A stretch of DNA of 64,000 bases from a virus, in IMG/VR virus record IMGVR_UViG_3300045988_149331, positions 32,001 through 96,000 of that record. The stretch is one strand, 5' to 3'. The notes below the pieces were generated by a model, which was not told the origin of the DNA, made no database searches, and was given only the letters and a program-made list of their open reading frames with translations. Numbering within the stretch: position 1 is the first letter of the stretch; each line of letters begins with the position of its first letter. The position numbers and the translations under genes were made by a program. Shown here piece after piece: positions 26,722-47,009 of this stretch.

Positions 26722-29442
26722 CTAACCTAACATGTCGAACTTAAATCCCGTCGTCATACGCGAAGCCGCCAAGTCAGCCAACCAGAACGAAGACGAAATA
26801 TCGTCATGACTGCCGACGCTCTCCAGCCCCTTTTCGGTGAAGGCTACTGAACCGAGGTCTTGGAAGATGAGGTCCTTGACCTGCTGTGAATAGACGTTCC
26901 CCACCGGGATGTGAATCTTACCGCGTTCGAACAGCGTCGATAGGTGGGGCCATCCGGTCTTGAGGTCATATTTGTCGATTCCAGTTGTATGGCCGATGAC
27001 GGGCATCCCTTCGGTATCAGCTGTTTCGACGAATATCTGCTGAAAGGTGTTATTCTCCATCACGATCAGGTCAGGCCGGAAACGGGAATTTATACGCCGC
27101 AAGACATTCATCTGCTCGAAGAACTTGGCGCCTTTTTCGCGGTAAAGGTGAAGCAGCCAACGCTCATCAGTCAGTTCGTCAATACCCCACACGCTGAATA
27201 CCGCGTAGTCAGCGCCGACGTTGGCTGAAATAGCGAAGTCACAGCCAACGACTACCTTGGAGAACTTGATGGGGAACTCTTCGCGTGAATCCACCAGCGT
27301 GTATTTCTCCATCCTCAGCAGCGACCGCGTGAGAATTTCCATCGGGAAAATAGACGATTCGTTGGTGATCGGGCGGCAAAGGTTCTCGCGCGAGAAGATG
27401 ATCGACCCCTGGGTCTCCTTTTTATCCATCAGATCCTTAAACGACCAACGCTGCGGCCACAATATTCGCCCGTTGGGGAAGATGGCCGGATATTCGATAA
27501 CGAACCAACCGTTCTTGGTCTTCAGGTCGCCATAAAGGTCTTCAGCGTGAAACGGTGTACCGACGACGATAATTTGGCCGCCAGGTACGAGCATGTTCAT
27601 AATTACGGAGTGGAAATAGTCGGTGGATTTGTTCCGTTGGAGAGCCGAATAGATGACGTTATCCTTCAGACCATCATCGACGATAATCCAGTACGGGTGA
27701 GCGCCACGCACCGAAGAACCAAAACCCTTGCCTGTCAAACGCGCGCCGTTACGGCACACTATATTGGTAGCTGACCAGTTGGCTGACGTTGACTGAGGAT
27801 AGAGTCGTTCCTTCAAGATTTCGTTTTCCTCGATGGTACCCTTCAGAATCTCCAAAAGGTCAACGCTCTGTTGTAACGAGAACGAAAACAGAAATCCGCG
27901 GTTCGACGACGCCACGGTGGGACGCTTCGAATAACGAACGCTTGACGGCTTTTTGTAGCGGTACAACTGCCACGCTGCGTAGGCGTTGGAGAAGTAGAAC
28001 GAGTTGTGAGCAACCGTTCCGTCGCCCAGTACGAAGCGATGGTCGCCATCGGTGGTGATCGAGACATATTCCCCTTCGCCAACAGGCGTGATCTTCAACG
28101 ACGATACCACCGTAGGGTGAACACCATCGATAGTTCCCCAGTCTTTGTGTGACGTCTTGGTAGACCAGTCGGTTTGGACCTTTTTACGGGCTATTTTCAC
28201 GGGGATTCGATCCAGTTCGCCAGAAATAGTTACACACCACGACGAATAGTCACGCCCTAACGCCTTACAATACCGCGTTCCACCGCCCATTCGCGTACAG
28301 AAGCCAAGACTGTCGGCCAGGTTCTTCACGTCACACACCAGCTGGTAGTTCGTATTACCGAAGTGATAGCCACCCTGCCAGTAGTTACCGTCGGAATCGA
28401 TCAACCCAGCCAACACCTGGAGGCGGACTGCTTCGCTGTTGACGAGATACTGCTCTGGAATGTGTTTATTGTAAAGCAGGTTGTAGCCCTTCAACACCCT
28501 TTCAATCGGGTTACGCTTACCGCGACCCCGAACGCCGACTCCAAGCGTCACGACAAGTCCCTTTTGGCTGTAGCGAAGCCCCGTGCGCTCGGCGTAGCCG
28601 CGGAGATATTCACGCACTTCAGGGTCGGCGGTGGTGATCTTCTGGTTGTTGGAGTTGCCGTCACCTAACCAGTACCCCAAGAAATACGGCTCCAACGTCA
28701 CAGGCCGTGCTGGATATTGTACCGCTACCTTGAAACCACGATAACGTTCCTTGATCCAGTTGGGGGTCTTACTTAACAGGGTCGGCATATCAATGTCCAC
28801 TATCCGCTTCGACGCTGTATCGATGGAGCCGTTGCGGTCCTTTTCGATCAGCGTACAAATGTGACGCGAATTGACCGTGTAACTATCACCGCGCGACTGG
28901 TCGATACGGTACATCGTGGAATCGTGACCGCGGTGCGTAGCCACCACACGGCGTGGTGTAGAGTTGATACCCATCAACAGATCGCCAACCACAACGTCTT
29001 CTACCCTCTTGATGGTTCCGTCGTACATCCTCACTGGTGTTCCAACAGCCTCACATTTCCCGTGGTCACGAGCAGCGTTGATACACAGTTTCTTGTGCTG
29101 GTGAACTAAATCGCCCCACTCCAGGTGGTGCCACGATAGTTGAAAGTCGGGGATAACGGAAGTGATGAAATACGTCAAATTGGCACACCGCAGCGTGTCT
29201 TCCACCACGGCAGAAATATTCTCTTCATAGCGCGGCTTAAAGTCGATCGACGCGTCACCTGTGTACATCACCTTGTAGGTGTCTTCCATCAACGCCGCGA
29301 ATATATCGTCAACATCGTGTGAGTCGCCACTCATCAACTCATTCAGTCCGCGCTCATCCAGCCCCTCGATTATTTCATCAACGAGGTCCAGGCACGCCAA
29401 ACGGTGCGTCACCGACGGCGATATAATAGTGTCTAAACCCAT
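26722..29442 (-). CDS. terL: Terminase large subunit precursor containing an intein
   Basis: The exteins join as INAARDHGK|SFYFSNAY, a Walker A-like motif. The extein total is 555 aa. The C-terminal half shows nuclease-type acidic blocks. Confidence 0.75.
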   Translation of the reverse strand: MGLDTIISPSVTHRLACLDLVDEIIEGLDERGLNELMSGDSHDVDDIFAALMEDTYKVMYTGDASIDFKPRYEENISAVVEDTLRCANLTYFITSVIPDFQLSWHHLEWGDLVHQHKKLCINAARDHGKCEAVGTPVRMYDGTIKRVEDVVVGDLLMGINSTPRRVVATHRGHDSTMYRIDQSRGDSYTVNSRHICTLIEKDRNGSIDTASKRIVDIDMPTLLSKTPNWIKERYRGFKVAVQYPARPVTLEPYFLGYWLGDGNSNNQKITTADPEVREYLRGYAERTGLRYSQKGLVVTLGVGVRGRGKRNPIERVLKGYNLLYNKHIPEQYLVNSEAVRLQVLAGLIDSDGNYWQGGYHFGNTNYQLVCDVKNLADSLGFCTRMGGGTRYCKALGRDYSSWCVTISGELDRIPVKIARKKVQTDWSTKTSHKDWGTIDGVHPTVVSSLKITPVGEGEYVSITTDGDHRFVLGDGTVAHNSFYFSNAYAAWQLYRYKKPSSVRYSKRPTVASSNRGFLFSFSLQQSVDLLEILKGTIEENEILKERLYPQSTSANWSATNIVCRNGARLTGKGFGSSVRGAHPYWIIVDDGLKDNVIYSALQRNKSTDYFHSVIMNMLVPGGQIIVVGTPFHAEDLYGDLKTKNGWFVIEYPAIFPNGRILWPQRWSFKDLMDKKETQGSIIFSRENLCRPITNESSIFPMEILTRSLLRMEKYTLVDSREEFPIKFSKVVVGCDFAISANVGADYAVFSVWGIDELTDERWLLHLYREKGAKFFEQMNVLRRINSRFRPDLIVMENNTFQQIFVETADTEGMPVIGHTTGIDKYDLKTGWPHLSTLFERGKIHIPVGNVYSQQVKDLIFQDLGSVAFTEKGLESVGSHDDISSSFWLADLAASRMTTGFKFDMLG
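28003..29055 (-). mobile_element. Intein (351 aa) with a LAGLIDADG homing endonuclease, inserted in the TerL P-loop
   Basis: It starts CEAVGTPVRMYDG and ends GDGTVAHN, with Ser as the +1 residue. The LAGLIDADG motifs are YFLGYWLGDGNS and VLAGLIDSDGNY. Boundary codons were checked at 29053-29055 (TGT) and 28003-28005 (AAC). Confidence 0.8.
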
Positions 29443-30698: not shown

Positions 30699-30712
30699 TA
30701 TAACGTTGGCGG
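30699..30712 (+). promoter_or_regulatory. Copy of the recurrent TATAACGTTGGCGG motif
   Basis: Intergenic, 31-44 nt upstream of the ATG at 30668. Coding-strand reading is CCGCCAACGTTATA. Confidence 0.4.
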
Positions 30713-31886: not shown

Positions 31887-31899
31887 TATAACGTTGGCG
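31887..31899 (+). promoter_or_regulatory. Copy of the TATAACGTTGGCG motif
   Basis: It lies directly after the HU terminator T-run and upstream of the tRNA. Confidence 0.35.
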
Positions 31900-31981: not shown

Positions 31982-32272
31982 TTATTTCTTGCCTTTGGCC
32001 TCGTCGAACACCTTGAACGAGTATGCGGGCTTGAAGGCGATGGACCTGTATCCACGGCATTCCACCTTCTCGCCCGTCAGGGGATTGTACCCCGGGCGCG
32101 GAGCGGCCACCTTCTGAACGAATCGGCCAACGCCGCCGATAACGATGTCTTCACCTTTGTCCCTCACCTCTTCGGTAAGAATGCCTTCGAGAGCACGGAC
32201 GAACTTAATCGCCTCGGCCTTGGTGCTGCCGGTACGCTCGGCGAGCGCCTTGTAAAGATCTTGCACTTTCAT
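31982..32272 (-). CDS. hup: HU/IHF-family DNA-binding protein
   Basis: MKVQDLYKALAERTGSTKAEAIKFVRALEGILTEEV...GGVGRFVQKVAAPRPGYNPLTGEKVECRGYRSIAFKPAYSFK. The start is set at 32272; the 168-aa extension in the track overlaps the upstream gene. Confidence 0.85.
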   Translation of the reverse strand: MKVQDLYKALAERTGSTKAEAIKFVRALEGILTEEVRDKGEDIVIGGVGRFVQKVAAPRPGYNPLTGEKVECRGYRSIAFKPAYSFKVFDEAKGKK

Positions 32273-32792: not shown

Positions 32793-33126
32793 CGTGTTTC
32801 ACCATTTTGATGTATCCAGCCTTCACTAACTTACGAATGGCGTTTCGCTCGTTGAGGGCCTGGAGATATACGCAATCGGGATCGTACAGGACCTTCACGG
32901 AACGAGTAACATTGTTACCGATGACGGGGTCGAATTCCAACCGCCGTTCAGTACCAATCTCCCGACATTCTCCGGTCTTATAGTTGAACTGGTAAAGTCT
33001 CATCCCGGGACGAAAGATTGTAGACCCCAGATAGCGCAGCTCTTGCTTTTGGCGCTCTAATTGCTCGGTGCGTGTGCGTTCGGCGTCTTGCTGGAAGAAA
33101 CGCCCAGTGTGAAAGAATTCGCTCAT
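32764..33126 (-). CDS. Hypothetical protein
   Basis: 120-aa ORF. Confidence 0.5.
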   Translation of the reverse strand: MSEFFHTGRFFQQDAERTRTEQLERQKQELRYLGSTIFRPGMRLYQFNYKTGECREIGTERRLEFDPVIGNNVTRSVKVLYDPDCVYLQALNERNAIRKLVKAGYIKMVKHDGKDPHVEN

Positions 33127-33704
33127 TTCTTGAAATGTTTTAGTCCTCGCTCGATACCCGCCAAAGTCTCGCTGGTAAAGGCGTGGATAATATCGGGTTT
33201 TGTGTTACAACGCCAGTACGGAACCGCTCCTTCCACGTCAGGCCCAGTGAGGCGGTACTGCATAAGCGAAAATTCCAACACGTAATCAACCTTGGGGGAA
33301 TTGTAGTTGCCCGGCAGCCGTATCTGTACTTGGAGCAGGTGGGCGTATCGGCCGCAGAATATCTCGTCACGACTATGGGCGTGGTCCAAACGTAGGCGGT
33401 AGGCGTCCATCGTGAGTTGGAATTCGCGAATGTAGGTAGTGTTGGCGAGTTTTATCGTTCGTGTCAAGATATGAGCGTGGTTGGTATTATCCATCCACTG
33501 ACCATGGATGATTTCGGCGTGGTTTGGCAGGTTGAGTATTACCGCGGCCCAGATTTCCTGGGGAATTACCGAATTGCGTTCGGGTTGATGGCGAAACGCT
33601 TCGGGCCACGTGGCTTCGAATTCGTCATCGACGGCCTCCTGTACCAAGGCGGCGATTTCTTCGGCGTAGAGCCAATTGATTATCCAACGAATCAGGCGTT
33701 TCAT
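33123..33704 (-). CDS. Hypothetical protein
   Basis: 193-aa ORF with 4-nt overlaps at both ends. Confidence 0.55.
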   Translation of the reverse strand: MKRLIRWIINWLYAEEIAALVQEAVDDEFEATWPEAFRHQPERNSVIPQEIWAAVILNLPNHAEIIHGQWMDNTNHAHILTRTIKLANTTYIREFQLTMDAYRLRLDHAHSRDEIFCGRYAHLLQVQIRLPGNYNSPKVDYVLEFSLMQYRLTGPDVEGAVPYWRCNTKPDIIHAFTSETLAGIERGLKHFKK

Positions 33705-33955
33705 CGTGTTACGGATTTTACCATTTGACCGTCGTCTGGAAATAGGCGAAGTTGCCTGACTCCTGGTTGTACTTTGGCCGTTTGCTGTTGGCGCTTATCG
33801 GTCAGCGTGAGTTCAAAACCGTTGGTGCTACCGACGGTGATACTCTTGACGTCGAGTTGACGTGTGATTATCTGTTTGGCGTATTCATGAGCCATGCGCT
33901 GCATACTGCGGGCAATATGGCCGATGTAGGGATGTTGTTTAGCTTCTTGTTCCAT
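33701..33955 (-). CDS. Hypothetical protein
   Basis: 84-aa ORF, first gene after the structured non-coding region. Confidence 0.5.
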   Translation of the reverse strand: MEQEAKQHPYIGHIARSMQRMAHEYAKQIITRQLDVKSITVGSTNGFELTLTDKRQQQTAKVQPGVRQLRLFPDDGQMVKSVTR

Positions 33956-33978
33956 TTCGTGGTAGGTTTTACGAACTC

Positions 33979-33992
33979 AATAACGTTGGCGG
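33979..33992 (+). promoter_or_regulatory. Copy of the AATAACGTTGGCGG motif
   Basis: 24-37 nt upstream of the ATG at 33955. The coding strand reads CCGCCAACGTTATTGAGTTCGTAAAACC. Confidence 0.4.
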
Positions 33993-34007
33993 TTCTGGGT
34001 GATGCCT

Positions 34008-34298
34008 TACGCGCGTGTATGTACACGTGTACGCGCTGGGGTGTACACACGTTCGTGCTGGCGTCGGGTGGGCTTCTCTCGAGCGCGTGTGTTCTCTCTC
34101 GCGTAAGCGTACGAGCGCACGTATGTGCGCGTCGGGAGACGTCTTCGACAGATTTATCTGGAGAAGGAAAGTCTCCCGTTGAGTGTAAAGAGAAGTGTCT
34201 TTTTCTCTTTACACCGGATAAGGGGGATTATAGGGGGTTAAGGAAAGGAAGGTTGCAGGAGGGAAACCATTAGGGGGAAGAAAGGGGAAACCGCCAAC
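34008..34298. repeat. Structured non-coding region with alternating purine-pyrimidine tracts, palindromes, a 12-bp hairpin and a G5-repeat purine tract
   Basis: RY tracts lie at 34008-34036 (29 nt), 34041-34052, 34083-34092 and 34115-34132. GTACACGTGTAC is a palindrome at 34021-34032. A perfect stem GTGTAAAGAGAA/TTCTCTTTACAC lies at 34183-34194 and 34203-34214. TA(A)GGGGG occurs at 34219, 34231 and 34271. Confidence 0.7.
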
Positions 34299-34484
34299 AT
34301 AGACTTTGTAAATCTCCAAAAGGCTAAATTTTACAACAGCATGAAATAACTCGCCAAACATCGTTTCTACAACATCTCTTTAACAGCAGTTTTGCGCCAA
34401 TCGTTTTTAGGCGATTTGGCGATCTAAAATCTCTCAGGTGAGGTAGGTGTACCAGAAACAGATTATCGGCAGAATACAAGAGCA

Positions 34485-34519
34485 AGAGAGCCGCTCCTGA
34501 TTGATGGGGGCGGCTCTCT
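34485..34519 (-). terminator. Hairpin terminator after the 327-aa gene
   Basis: 10-bp stem AGAGAGCCGC/GCGGCTCTCT, followed on the minus strand by the T-rich CTTGCTCTTGTATTCTG. Confidence 0.4.
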
Positions 34520-34542
34520 GCAGTAAACGAAACGACGTAGCG

Positions 34543-35526
34543 TTACGATACGGGCTTCTTTTCGGCGTCCAGCACGACTTCAGTGTCTTGGACCTTGTCG
34601 TTGAGGTCTACGACGTCTGCTTTACCGCCGCCGGCCGGAATGTCGATGCGTGAAAGTCCTACGCGACTCCCCAGCATCTTACCCAGCGCGGCAGACAAAT
34701 TGGCCATCGGGGCGTCGGTGGGGACAGCGGTGTCTTCCTCTTCGTCGTCGGGAATACCGTGTTGGCGCTGATATTCCTTCGACATCGCCTGGAAACGATC
34801 GCGGTACTCGTTCAACGTGTCCTCAGGGTCGCGCTGGAGATGGCCTTCATCGGCCAACGTAGCCAGCAGCGGTACGTTGATGGCGCAGAGTTTCTCGATG
34901 ATGAACGTACCGACGCCAAATACGTTGGCTAACAGCATACCGTCCGTTCGACGATACGTTGCGGCCATAAGATCACGATCGACCAACACGAACTGGCCCT
35001 TGAGTTCGCGCGGATTCAGCGTCGGTACGTGGCGCAGGAGTTCCTCGACGCCGATGCCGCAGTGGGAGTAGCGTTCGTTGACGATCTTCAGGATCATCCG
35101 TTCGATCACCAGCAGTTCCGTGTCCAGCGCGCGGCCGTACTGCTCCAGTGTCGTAACGCCATTGGCCGTCAGCGACAGCGTGTTGTCGTCAACACAGAAC
35201 TCCGTCAGACCGTTCTCGCTGCATTCTACGGACAGCCGCCGGATGTAGTCGCGAAGATGTTCATCTTCGTGGAGGTCGATCAGTGAGCGGCACACCAAGT
35301 TGGCGTCCAACATCTGCCCCAGCCAATCACGCGCTGCGCCATACGGAACGCGCAGTTCGTCGATGCCCGTAAACGGCAGCGGGCCTTCCTCGACGTTGAG
35401 GATAACAGGACGATCCGCAGCAGCAGAGGCCATGGCGTACAGGAACAGAACCTGCGCTTTGGTCGTTTGGAGATTTTCAGTCACAGCCAGCGGTCCCGCG
35501 GCATTGAATACAGTTTTCGTTTCCAT
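34543..35526 (-). CDS. Hypothetical protein
   Basis: 327-aa ORF with no recognised motif. Confidence 0.6.
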   Translation of the reverse strand: METKTVFNAAGPLAVTENLQTTKAQVLFLYAMASAAADRPVILNVEEGPLPFTGIDELRVPYGAARDWLGQMLDANLVCRSLIDLHEDEHLRDYIRRLSVECSENGLTEFCVDDNTLSLTANGVTTLEQYGRALDTELLVIERMILKIVNERYSHCGIGVEELLRHVPTLNPRELKGQFVLVDRDLMAATYRRTDGMLLANVFGVGTFIIEKLCAINVPLLATLADEGHLQRDPEDTLNEYRDRFQAMSKEYQRQHGIPDDEEEDTAVPTDAPMANLSAALGKMLGSRVGLSRIDIPAGGGKADVVDLNDKVQDTEVVLDAEKKPVS

Positions 35527-36105: not shown

Positions 36106-36932
36106 TTTCGTCCGTAGTCGTGGGCTGATTCGTAAGCCGTCCAGGCGGCTTCAAAGTCCTCCAGCCCGAGGTTTTGCATTTTAACGTTGGCGGTGCTGAT
36201 GGCAGTCGCGATCTCACTAACGGCGGCCCGGTGTACCAGCATAGCCTCTTTAAGCGATTTGAGGCGGTCGCCCAACAGCAACAGGCCCATCCACGCATAG
36301 CGCACGACCTGTACATTTACGTCTTCGCACGAAAAGCGGCCATAATTCTCAAGCGACGTCACCAGTACGGGGTTGCCGTTATCGTCATCGAGATAGAACG
36401 TCAGCGTGGATTTTTGGTCGATGTCTCCACGGCCATCAAGCAGCCCAAACGTCACTGAGCCTGGCGACGTGCGTGAAACACGCCAATCCGTGCAGTTGCG
36501 GTTTTCGACGAGGAATTTGTCCAACGCCTTTTGGAACTTCAGGTTGGCTTCATCCATTTTACGATTGGAGCCGTTGACGGCCATCTCCAGACGCGCAACG
36601 GCCACTTTACCAGCGTTCGAAGAGCGATATGCGTTCATGATACGGAACCGGAGGTAGTTGCGCCGAGCGTCTTCGAACAGTCGCTCCATATTGTTCAGGT
36701 ACTCAACCATCTCCCGCTTCGATTTCTGGTAGACGCCCGGCTGAAACGAATTACCACCCATCGACTGAAAGGCCAGATCGTACGCCTTTTGAGCCCTGAA
36801 TTCAGGCTCGGGGTTGACGCCGTTGAGGCGTGCTTCGTACTCACACCAATCTTCACGCCGCTTGAAGACGTCGATTATGGCGTCCATCACGGCCTCCTTG
36901 GTCTTGAATTTGTTGATACGGTACGTTTTCAT
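36102..36932 (-). CDS. Hypothetical protein
   Basis: 276-aa ORF. It contains an internal copy of TTAACGTTGGCGG at 36180-36192. Confidence 0.6.
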   Translation of the reverse strand: MKTYRINKFKTKEAVMDAIIDVFKRREDWCEYEARLNGVNPEPEFRAQKAYDLAFQSMGGNSFQPGVYQKSKREMVEYLNNMERLFEDARRNYLRFRIMNAYRSSNAGKVAVARLEMAVNGSNRKMDEANLKFQKALDKFLVENRNCTDWRVSRTSPGSVTFGLLDGRGDIDQKSTLTFYLDDDNGNPVLVTSLENYGRFSCEDVNVQVVRYAWMGLLLLGDRLKSLKEAMLVHRAAVSEIATAISTANVKMQNLGLEDFEAAWTAYESAHDYGRK

Positions 36933-37703: not shown

Positions 37704-37735
37704 AGTTTTGTAGTGTGTTTTAGTTTCATTTTCAA

Positions 37736-37770
37736 CTACAAAGGTACGGCGAATTTTCCAAATCTCCAAG
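37736..37770 (-). promoter_or_regulatory. Promoter-like cassette
   Basis: Minus strand reads CTTGGAGATTTGGAAAATTCGCCGTACCTTTGTAGTTGAAAATGAAAC. The TACCTTTG box lies 43 nt from the ATG. Confidence 0.55.
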
Positions 37771-37884
37771 AGAATTTCAAGAAATTTTTCTCTTTTTACA
37801 AAGATTTTTCCAAGACCCTCGTTAAATCAACATCAGAGCGAGTATATCATCATCGCCAACAGCAGCGCCACAACACAAAACCCC

Positions 37885-46996: not shown

Positions 46997-47009
46997 AATA
47001 ACGTTGGCG
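46997..47009 (+). promoter_or_regulatory. Copy of the AATAACGTTGGCG motif
   Basis: 26-38 nt upstream of the ATG at 46971. Confidence 0.4.

Follow-up and report, generated by a model that had tools for sequence, protein, structure and literature searches.

What does the largest non-coding gap of a 100,685-bp phage genome do, and which of its features matter? The gap, 587 nt long (33956-34542), lies in the window analysed here, a 64,000-nt stretch (positions 32,001 to 96,000) of the viral record IMGVR_UViG_3300045988_149331; all coordinates below are counted within the window. An earlier, sequence-only reading had called it by far the largest gap of the genome; it is the largest, but the runner-up measures about 440 nt, which makes "by far" generous. 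That reading had also listed alternating purine-pyrimidine (RY) runs, palindromes, a perfect hairpin, G-runs and an inverted TTGGCGG bracket, every one of which is present.

A conserved gap at the junction of two operons

Both flanking genes and about 113 of the 125 ORFs are encoded on the minus strand, which is therefore the gene sense. Genes for DNA polymerase, helicase and SbcC lie upstream of the gap's core, which ends the replication module, and the downstream operon leads to the terminase and portal genes, with an HU-like gene 1.5 kb from the gap and the large-terminase gene about 4.5 kb from it, nine genes (eight ORFs and a tRNA gene) standing between. The gap marks the point at which the replication-gene operon gives way to the one that leads into the terminase and virion genes. 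We considered the 327-aa protein encoded at its border as an initiator and rejected it: it belongs to no detectable family (no PHROG, Pfam or PDB match), its AlphaFold model is poor (pLDDT 40) and too weak for a fold search, and its homologues, of 48-98% identity, are confined to the phage genus. The 84-aa gene on the other side, like the genome elsewhere, has no Shine-Dalgarno sequence. The phage is a ~100-kb human-gut phage with Bacteroidota-style signals (Bacteroides-type), and its lineage is very common in human-gut metagenomes; an index of public assemblies lists the exact sequence of the 84-aa protein in 1370 sample blocks, many of the copies on near-complete ~100-kb contigs.

The sequence-only reading had made its case depend on conservation in relatives and on the absence of a small conserved ORF, and it held up on both counts. 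All relatives found (~50 human-gut contigs) keep a gap of 394-587 nt at the same position. No ORF is conserved in frame within it, those present varying in frame and sequence among relatives; the gaps of the L060 and L064 types hold no ORF of at least 25 aa, and gene callers placed zero genes in the gap in 10 independent assemblies. A blastn search of the 1.1-kb stretch 33700-34800 against INPHARED phages gave no match, nor did the Rfam 15 covariance models on either strand of 33000-35500 at an E of 1 or less. The gap is a real, conserved control region. Read along the minus strand, it consists of a terminator, TTGGCG-type repeats, a C-run tract, hairpins H1 to H4, a variable RY segment and a promoter-like box (Table 1). 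The repeats, the tract (C-run on the gene sense, G-run on the plus strand) and the four hairpins form a universal core of about 300 nt, and the modules flanking the core recombine independently among relatives, around and within it.

Table 1. Features of the gap and of its two flanking genes, in gene-sense order
Feature	Position	Strand	Description and basis
Last gene of replication-side operon, 327 aa	34543..35526	-	ORF list; stop codon borders gap
Intrinsic terminator	34470..34519	-	Stem GAGAGCCGC/GCGGCUCUC (34519-34485), then U-rich UUGCUCUUGUAUUCU; fold, inverted repeat
Optional AT-rich module	34300..34484	-	39% GC, with CGCCAA/TTGGCG sites; comparison of relatives
Last TTGGCGG repeat	34291..34298	-	Abuts C-run tract; arm of 10-nt inverted repeat with 33985-33994
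Polypurine (plus) / polypyrimidine (gene-sense) tract	34215..34290	.	Five C/G runs including CCCCCTATAATCCCCC; composition
H1	34183..34214	+	Perfect 12-bp stem, 34183-34194 / 34203-34214; 13-15 bp in relatives
H2	34133..34178	+	Three tiers: covarying 8-10-bp basal helix, invariant middle/apical part, 2x2 internal loop
H3	34115..34130	+	GCGCAC-GUAU-GUGCGC; 97% of cells paired
H4	34100..34109	+	CGC-GUAA-GCG; 5 bp in relatives, CGUGC/GCACG or UGUGC/GCACA
RY-alternating segment with palindromes	33993..34099	.	29-, 12- and 10-nt runs; least conserved part
Promoter-like box	33976..33992	-	CCGCCAACGTTATTGAG; 12-mer ends 25 nt before ATG
First gene past gap, 84 aa	33701..33955	-	ORF list

At the replication edge, a GC-rich stem-loop and U-tract directly after the operon form an intrinsic terminator that ends it; the 76-nt stretch holding them folds at -25.3 kcal/mol (z -3.3). 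This terminator is conserved in relatives having the optional AT-rich module. Those that lack the module (L004, L006-9, L012, L041 and L059-L070 types) carry their own 13-14-bp GCCGC...GCGGC hairpin and UUUUCUGUU directly after the stop codon, so that the core, whichever type of gap it lies in, comes directly after a strong gene-sense terminator. Against the Bacteroidota sigma-A promoter consensus, taken as TTTG-N19-21-TAnnTTTG, the gap in the window has no full match, its best sites on either strand scoring 8/10; the module holds a weak host-type promoter-like site (TTTG-N21-TAAAATTT, starting at 34358). In the L048 relative the module contains a perfect TTG-N22-TATTTTTG (9/9) aimed at the core, and the L051, L053 and L080 types have a near-perfect version there (8/9). 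Between terminator and core, neither the window nor the short-gap relatives scanned contain a host-type promoter.

At the other edge, CGCCAACGTTAT recurs in the genome as four exact copies and one copy with a single mismatch, all in gene sense; of the exact copies, three precede an ATG by about 25-35 nt and the fourth occupies the spacer upstream of the tRNA-Gln gene. Among 34 of 34 distinct relatives the box does not vary, bar C/T at one position. Judged by the common orientation and fixed distance of its copies, CGCCAACGTTAT is a putative recurrent phage promoter-like box. We discarded a two-block (ECF-like) reading of it, for which the aligned upstream sequences share no -35, and a reading of the reversed box as a host -7 (TAACGTTG), for which a correctly spaced TTG is found in 4/34 relatives and, by inspection, in 1/5 genomic copies. 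With a terminator at one edge and this candidate box at the other, the gap has the make-up of a transcriptional junction.

The RY tracts had been the most striking features of the sequence-only reading, which took them to be Z-DNA-prone. The runs are there, at 34008-34036 (29 nt, holding GTACACGTGTAC), 34041-34052 (12 nt), 34083-34092 (10 nt) and 34115-34132 (18 nt, GCGCAC-GTAT-GTGCGC), and the 29- and 18-nt runs are the genome's two longest and its sole RY-alternating runs of at least 16 nt. However, the segment that holds the 29-, 12- and 10-nt runs is the most variable part of the gap: L064 and the L051 group have lost most of it, and in the L004, L060 and L062 types other RY-rich sequence takes its place. 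The RY tracts are dispensable.

The inverted TTGGCGG bracket fared similarly. GTTGGCGG at 33985 and CCGCCAAC at 34291 extend to a perfect 10-nt inverted repeat (GTTGGCGGTT / AACCGCCAAC), a 6-10-nt version of which is preserved in most relatives. Yet TTGGCG is the commonest hexamer of the genome (142 copies on the plus strand, 103 on the minus), and the genome has 15 copies of GTTGGCGG and 12 of CCGCCAAC, which leaves the bracket with little statistical weight. A long-range helix between GTTGGCGG and CCGCCAAC was rejected, as its wobble pattern is mixed among relatives (by inspection). Relatives carry arrays of 2-6 TTGRCR repeats in the same orientation, in many cases followed by a T-run; these repeats look like the -33 element in host-type promoters of this phage, their spacing is irregular (14-60 nt) and they lie at variable distances from the other elements (55-107 nt).

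Four covarying hairpins beside a G-run tract

Covariation in relatives had been proposed as a check on the structured region, and it turned out to be strong. In the four hairpins, 20 of 41 pairs change on both sides, a number reached by none of 500 shuffles, and 93.1% of cells are paired against 85.2% in shuffles; slid controls score at most half as much for covariation. That the four hairpins are maintained by compensatory substitutions is strongly supported. A covariance model of them, R1, matches 53 of 53 related loci (E of 6e-8 or less) and has no match in 706 kb of unrelated viral DNA. A search for CCCCTATAATCCCC across IMG/VR returned chance matches alone and was reused as a negative control for R1.

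The hairpins differ in how they vary. H1 occurs in 12 distinct variants with many compensatory changes. In H2 (AGACGTCT at 34137), all eight pairs of the basal helix change on both sides with 99.5% of cells paired, and the middle and apical parts (CUUC/GAAG, CAGA/UCUG) are invariant in sequence, apart from a U.G pair in the middle helix of 8 sequences. An A-U pair of H3 becomes G-C in relatives (GCGCGC/GCGCGC) and its loop is GUAU, GUGA, GUAA, GUCA or GCAU. In plus-sense reading the H4 loop is GUAA (UUAC in gene sense), with GUAG in L044 as the single exception among variants.

Which strand folds? Read on the plus sense, every non-Watson-Crick pair in H1 is G.U, which the gene sense turns into A.C; the G.U pairs make up all internal non-Watson-Crick pairs in 6 of the 12 variants and the apical pair in 11. 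Likewise the internal loop of H2 gives a tandem GA/GA when read on the plus sense but UC/UC on the gene sense, and the U.G found in the middle helix of H2 in 8 sequences points to the plus strand too. The wobble pairs thus appear to favour the plus strand, that is, the strand antisense to the genes and their template, with perhaps 5-6 independent substitutions in favour and 1 against (p of roughly 0.06-0.1). The two senses are not told apart by thermodynamic z-scores, the gene-sense fold of the hairpins in the window being good as well (z -6.4), and long-range pairings that RNAalifold proposed on the plus sense were set aside because they look like G/U-rich artefacts. As to plus-strand signals, we found no plus-sense terminator in the gap, and 30 of 34 relatives have no host-type promoter upstream of the hairpins on that strand; the other four carry TTG-N18-20-TAACGTTG.

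Beside H1 lies the tract that had been described as purine-only. It is purine-rich and where it was said to be, but 65 of its 84 bases, not all, are purines (34215-34298, plus strand: 35 G, 30 A, 10 T, 9 C). It contains TAAGGGGG at 34219 and TAGGGGG at 34231 and 34271. The most purine-rich 70-nt window of the genome falls in the gap (58/70, about 6 sd over the mean), and the tract is both the top G4Hunter-type peak of the genome at 60 and 80 nt and its sole plus-strand match to G3+N1-7G3+N1-36G3+N1-7G3+, in the pattern G5-N6-G5 ... G3 ... G5-N6-G4. By its sequence potential, this G-rich segment could sustain a persistent hybrid or G-quadruplex. The C/G runs are conserved and, by eye, expand to roughly 8-11 in the L042/L048 and L050/L055 types. 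TAGGGGGAAAGGGGGTAAACC, a G-run motif related to these, stands on the opposite strand at the other module boundary, which also carries a conserved element of ~130 nt (genome 3860-3990); we discounted the likeness, which is just about 2.4 sd over shuffles. Two promoter candidates were rejected as well. TATAAT as a recurrent late promoter fails in that 14 other gene-sense copies appear to lie inside reading frames and TATAAATA is absent, and the L044 group has TATAT in place of TATAAT; TGCAAC as its -35 fails on a spacing that varies from 19 to 33 nt and on the L042 type, which has no TGCAAC.

A possible origin or priming element and its rivals

Three functions had been put forward for the gap: a replication origin, a packaging or regulatory hub, and a structured non-coding RNA (ncRNA) locus. 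Conservation, covarying hairpins and the apparent transcriptional junction agree with this range of proposals, except for packaging. The core comes after the terminator and before the box, and short-gap relatives have no promoter in between; it is therefore probably outside gene-sense mRNAs. Because of this, and because the wobbles favour the plus strand, our preferred reading, held tentatively and as a possibility rather than a probability, is that the core works in cis as a replication origin or priming element. Exposed on the plus strand, the hairpin cluster would serve to signal priming, synthesis begun at the hairpins would run co-directionally with all transcription, and the TTGGCG-type repeats would be the binding sites of a phage or host protein by which the site is opened or marked. 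Hairpin priming signals exist in phage G4 and plasmid RSF1010, and lactococcal phages such as c2 have origins at the early/late junction with essential structured transcripts.

In a variant of this reading, DNA synthesis would be primed by a G-rich plus-sense transcript that is retained at the G-run tract as a persistent R-loop or G-quadruplex. Its most specific form is a transcription-primed origin of the ColE1 RNA II/mitochondrial CSB II kind in a Bacteroides phage with modified thymine, with the TAGGGGGAAAGGGGGTAAACC motif as partner or counterpart; here the plus-sense RNA would fold the four hairpins, after which an R-loop or hybrid G-quadruplex at the G-runs would prime synthesis. We regard that form as improbable. 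An R-loop origin has a promoter upstream, and the host-type one is missing from the plus strand in the 30 relatives noted above; a phage-specific promoter is possible.

Cumulative GC skew had been suggested as a check for an origin, and it spoke against one. Apart from the effect of the tract's own composition, nothing inflects at the gap: the cumulative curve declines almost monotonically with a local blip alone, a weak test in a genome whose genes are nearly one-stranded, and skew at fourfold-degenerate sites shows no step there either. An origin of the iteron/DUE type is not indicated, given irregularly spaced repeats, an AT-rich part that is optional and no skew switch; since the AT-rich stretch is an optional module, the universal core is without a classic unwinding element.

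The covariation that supports the hairpins is more typical of RNAs than of dsDNA-phage origins, and it brings in, as a possible though doubtful alternative, a stable antisense (plus-sense) ncRNA gene that would run from H4 to H1 and end in a G-rich 3' tail. Such an RNA, acting in trans or in cis, may for example regulate the flanking operons or bind a host or phage protein through the many GGA/G-run motifs in it. Compensatory changes in all four hairpins, the plus-sense G.U pairs, tandem GA loop and GUAA loop, the invariant apical part of H2, which suggests recognition by a protein, and a core not expected in gene-sense transcripts all accord with it. It sits poorly with a plus-strand host-type promoter in just 4 of 34 relatives, with the missing plus-sense terminator, with the lack of an Rfam match on either strand and with strand evidence that is statistically modest.

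The opposite sense has its own case. If transcribed with the genes, the C-rich tract could be a Rho-utilisation (rut) site that backs the terminator or attenuates a leader, and the hairpins, lying in a long leader of the downstream operon like the PR'-6S leader of lambda or the put leaders, could serve in pausing, processing (RNase III-like) or antitermination. Its composition is suitable (35 C and 9 G in 84 nt, with C-runs that expand in some relatives), the site is the start of the operon toward the terminase and portal genes, the gene-sense fold in the window is good, and the promoters of L048, L051, L053 and L080 point toward the core. We nevertheless think it rather unlikely. Whatever the gap type, a strong intrinsic terminator with its U-tract stands ahead of the tract; in short-gap relatives no promoter separates it from the core; and the recurrent promoter-like box comes downstream of the hairpins. 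On this sense H1 would contain A.C mismatches in 6 of 12 variants and H2 a UC/UC internal loop; TATAAT is not a recurrent intergenic motif in the genome and the L044 group is without it; and the tract is conserved in sequence, which Rho binding does not require.

Quite improbable, in our view, is an architectural or regulatory element of double-stranded DNA, with no role for a single strand: TTGGCG/CGCCAA sites, together with sequences prone to form cruciforms, Z-DNA or H-DNA, would be bound by the phage HU-like protein or by a regulator and so control how active the adjacent box is. The inverted TTGGCGG/CCGCCAAC sites that flank the core in most relatives, the likeness of the repeats to -33 elements, the nearby HU-like gene and the unusual structural potential of the sequence would suit it. 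Compensatory changes, however, keep pairing and not sequence, and therefore point to a folded single strand or a cruciform and not to operator-type sites; moreover, the distances between repeats and other elements vary and TTGGCG is common genome-wide.

That the terminase recognises the gap as a packaging site (pac or cos) is very improbable. In its favour, the gap is unique, non-coding and structured, bears repeats and precedes the packaging and virion block; but about 4.5 kb separate it from the large-terminase gene downstream, it is not beside the small ORFs that precede that gene, among which a small-terminase gene is expected, the contigs of relatives start at different, circularly permuted positions with none ending at the gap, and the 55-bp terminal repeat of the record looks like an assembly overlap, so that nothing points to packaging.

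Whatever its function, the locus offers a well-defined, strongly covarying 125-nt four-hairpin element with a G-run tract and a specific covariance model, and a map of terminator and promoter-like signals at the replication/virion junction. If the origin reading is true, Bacteroides phage replicons, or tools to interfere with these phages, could be built on the element; should it prove to be an RNA, it would be a new phage ncRNA family.

Comparison with known systems

As a whole, the phage resembles the 'Gratiaviridae', a candidate family of Bacteroides and Parabacteroides phages (Benler et al. 2021, PMC8008677), in its DNA polymerase in two pieces, its SbcC and helicases, its human-gut origin and its want of Shine-Dalgarno sequences, a comparison by such traits and not by phylogeny. 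An intergenic element like the present one is not described in the parts of Benler et al. 2021 (PMC8008677) that we consulted.

The gap shares with the lambda late region (PR'-qut-6S RNA-tR') and the HK022 put RNAs a hairpin-bearing non-coding region of a few hundred nt at the start of the virion operon, directly after a gene of unknown function. It differs from them in that the box is downstream and not upstream of the hairpins, there is no leader terminator, the wobbles favour the opposite strand, and TATAAT is variable and unlike Bacteroidota promoters. Rho-dependent terminators such as lambda tR1 likewise have a C-rich, G-poor gene-sense tract of ~80 nt just past the end of an operon; the composition of the present tract fits a rut site, yet here a strong intrinsic terminator precedes it in all relatives and the sequence is conserved, unlike that of usual rut sites.

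With transcription-primed origins (ColE1 RNA II, mitochondrial CSB II, T4 oriF/oriG and the c2 ori transcript) the core shares its setting, a non-coding stretch where two modules meet, and its layout of structured stem-loops ahead of a G-rich segment with the potential for a lasting RNA-DNA hybrid or G-quadruplex. Most relatives here, in contrast, have no recognisable promoter in the G-rich sense, and synthesis primed in this way would meet the replication operon head-on.

The single-strand initiation (ssi) signals, namely the complementary-strand origin of G4 and ssiA/ssiB of RSF1010 oriV, belong to ssDNA phages or strand-displacement plasmids with defined primases, whereas ours is a 100-kb dsDNA phage known from sequence alone. 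Like them, the core is a hairpin cluster, here of four covarying hairpins in about 125-140 nt, that seems one-stranded in its action, with a plus-strand wobble bias that comes from few independent events; and it has adjoining repeats and a GC-rich segment, from which a plus-strand primer would extend co-directionally with transcription.

Position and conservation of the gap

The 587-nt gene-free stretch at 33956-34542 is, as a reading of the sequence alone had claimed, the largest non-coding gap of the phage genome (about 440 nt for the next), and all the sequence elements listed for it were found in place. The minus strand carries about 113 of the 125 ORFs. Taken in the order of transcription, a replication block (DNA polymerase in two pieces, helicase and SbcC; window 47-63 kb) comes before the gap, and after it come small genes, a virion protein, an HU-like gene, tRNA-Gln, the large terminase (26722-29442) and the portal; the gap is therefore the junction between the replication and virion modules. 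The window covers positions 32001-96000 of an IMG/VR phage record 100,685 bp long, which has a 55-bp terminal repeat resembling an assembler overlap. Gene leaders are A-rich and Shine-Dalgarno sequences are absent, and the Bacteroidota promoter TTG-N19-20-TAnnTTTG fits several intergenic sites.

Protein-anchored searches collected about 50 related contigs, all from ~100-kb human-gut phages. The conservation that remained to be checked was found in each: a gap of 394-587 nt follows the 327-aa gene at the same place, and the gene beyond it is of the 84-aa type in most. A small conserved ORF does not explain the gap, since none is kept among the relatives, and gene callers predicted none inside it in 10 assemblies. 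On sequence comparison the region is mosaic: 34299-33023, which takes in the ~300-nt universal core and the first genes beyond it, is shared at 94-98% identity with relatives in which the gene upstream reaches only about 70% at the DNA level, and an AT-rich module is optional, present in some lineages and absent from others. Alleles of the 327-aa protein (34543-35526), which is confined to this phage genus, share 48% to 98% identity and assort without regard to gap type or to the genes downstream, and the junction is therefore a recombination boundary. The index of public assemblies lists the exact 84-aa protein (33704-33955) in 1370 sample blocks, of which 523 include contigs of 50-200 kb; the lineage is very prevalent in human-gut data. 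One record, IMGVR_UViG_3300029572_000001 (L018 and L090; 199,131 bp, about twice the genome length), holds two differing versions of the locus, one near 61-69 kb and the other near 161-167 kb, and probably joins two related phages in a chimeric or concatenated assembly.

Covariation and strand of the hairpins

We built a covariance model, R1, of the four hairpins of the core from H4 to H1 (127 positions, 41 pairs). It matched 53 of 53 related loci searched, with E between 1e-32 and 6e-8; unrelated viral DNA totalling 706 kb gave no match (best E 0.32). In the alignment of 29 distinct sequences, which is biased towards structure because it was fitted to the model, 93.1% of hairpin cells are paired (85.2% in shuffles), both partners vary in 20 of the 41 pairs (none of 500 shuffles reaches this number), and the covariation score of 0.249 exceeds those of shuffles (0.123) and of slid partners (at most 0.13). 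The covariation proposed as a check is thus present, and a register-correct hand analysis of H1 and individual folds agree with the alignment. In the basal helix of H2 all eight pairs covary, with 99.5% of cells paired; its middle and apical parts hardly vary in sequence, suggesting that they are specifically recognised.

In the window neither sense folds better than the other (z -5.8 and -6.4), and z-scores across ten variants do not separate the strands. In H1 the departures from Watson-Crick pairing, found in 6 of 12 variants at three positions of the stem and in 11 of 12 at the apical pair, all read A.C on the gene sense and G.U on the plus sense. Eight sequences carry a plus-sense U.G in the middle helix of H2. 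On that same sense the internal loop of H2 is a tandem GA/GA (UC/UC on the gene sense), and the loop of H4 is GUAA. There is one counter-example, H4 of the relative L002. With roughly 5-6 independent events for the plus sense and 1 against (p about 0.06-0.1), the substitution pattern leans suggestively, short of proof, to the plus strand.

The 29-nt and 18-nt runs of purine-pyrimidine alternation are indeed unusual, being the genome's only ones of at least 16 nt. The polypurine tract is purine-rich and not purine-only; its richness (58 of 70 bases, about 6 sd over the mean) is the genome maximum, and it is the genome's top G-quadruplex-type peak at 60-80 nt. As for the inverted TTGGCGG bracket, a 6-10-nt version is kept in most relatives, but it is weak on its own because TTGGCG is the commonest hexamer genome-wide (142 plus, 103 minus; about 25 per strand expected of a random hexamer). 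Under a fourth-order Markov model its frequency is not exceptional, and its abundance probably reflects codon and composition bias.

Signals around the core

Features of the gap and copies of the recurrent box
Feature	Window coordinates	Sense	Remarks
Intrinsic terminator	34519-34485	gene sense (minus)	hairpin and U-rich tail
Optional AT-rich module	34300-34542	gene sense	CGCCAA/TTGGCG sites, weak host-type promoter-like site
TTGRCR repeats	after optional module	gene sense	two to six, same orientation, many followed by a T-run
C-run tract	34290-34215	gene sense	runs conserved; TATAAT within not invariant
Hairpin H1	34214-34183		
Hairpin H2	34178-34133		
Hairpin H3	34130-34115		
Hairpin H4	34109-34100		
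Variable RY-rich segment	34099-33993		mostly deleted in L064 and the L051 group of relatives
Box CCGCCAACGTTATTGAG	33992-33976	gene sense	12-mer ends 25 nt before ATG
Box CGCCAACGTTAT, copies	33980-33991, 30700-30711, 31888-31899, 36181-36192, 46998-47009		

Whatever the gap type, a strong gene-sense terminator stands ahead of the core; where the optional module is lacking, it is another hairpin, of 13-14 bp, with UUUUCUGUU, directly after the stop codon. The terminator loop is inverted relative to L002, L003 and L013-L020 (CCCCATCAATCAGGA here, TCCTGATTGATGGGG-type there) between identical stem arms, and looks like a flip between inverted-repeat arms. The promoter-like site of the module, which in the window carries one extra A (TAAAATTT), is perfect or near-perfect in some relatives (TTG-N22-TATTTTTG; TTGGCGATTT...TAAATTTC), as in L048 (ORTV01000101) and L051/L053/L080, between terminator and C-run tract. 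The latter expands to roughly 8-11 runs in some lineages; TATAAT is not a recurrent intergenic motif of the genome. The TTGRCR repeats resemble the -33 part of the phage's own host-type promoters. Upstream of one of these promoters (37720-37800) lie TGTAAAAAGAGAAAAA and the inverted words AAGAGAA/TTCTCTT, as in the H1 arms, a sharing that may be chance.

Downstream of the hairpins is the promoter-like box CGCCAACGTTAT, which has four exact copies and one with a single mismatch in the genome, gene-sense every time; an ATG follows three of the exact copies after about 25-35 nt, and the fourth sits in the spacer ahead of the tRNA-Gln gene. Its opposite strand, ATAACGTTGGCG, includes TAACGTTG, which differs at one base from the Bacteroidota -7 box TAnnTTTG, and on the gap's plus strand four relatives have TTG 18-20 nt upstream of TAACGTTG. 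Given the terminator before the core, the box after the hairpins and no host-type promoter found between terminator and core in relatives lacking the module, the core probably lies outside gene-sense mRNAs in many relatives.

The other module boundary, from virion to replication genes (genome 4140-3780, outside the window), has a terminator and a CAACGTTTAT box. There, a ~130-nt segment almost invariant in five relatives (L218-L222) carries, on the gene sense, TTGGCAG-TAGGGGGAAAGGGGGTAAACC and a second GGGGTAAACC. The first of these, a G-run motif, is similar to the gap's plus-strand CATTAGGGGGAAGAAAGGGGAAACC, a likeness only about 2.4 sd over shuffles.

Candidate roles of the core

At its edges the gap is an ordinary terminator/promoter junction; its core is a conserved, structured and probably strand-specific cis element. 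We tentatively place first an origin or priming element. Counted against it are the lack of a GC-skew step at the gap, where the sequence-only reading had looked to skew for an origin, the lack of an unwinding element in the universal core, the irregularity of its repeats, and the failure to recognise an initiator protein, the 327-aa neighbour falling in no detectable family and giving a poor structure model. An antisense ncRNA is a less probable second; 30 of 34 relatives lack a plus-strand host-type promoter ahead of the hairpins. It is unlikely that the core acts on the gene sense as a Rho site, leader or processing element, and a double-stranded architectural element is more doubtful still. 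A packaging site is very improbable, as the terminase genes are far from the gap and the contigs of relatives are permuted.

As an origin or priming element, the core is likened to a single-strand initiation signal: the plus-strand hairpin cluster would act like one, and synthesis primed there would run in the same direction as transcription. In a variant, an RNA-primed R-loop would form at the G-run tract. In gene content (including a two-piece DNA polymerase, SbcC and helicases), the phage resembles 'Gratiaviridae', a candidate family of Bacteroides/Parabacteroides phages (PMC8008677).
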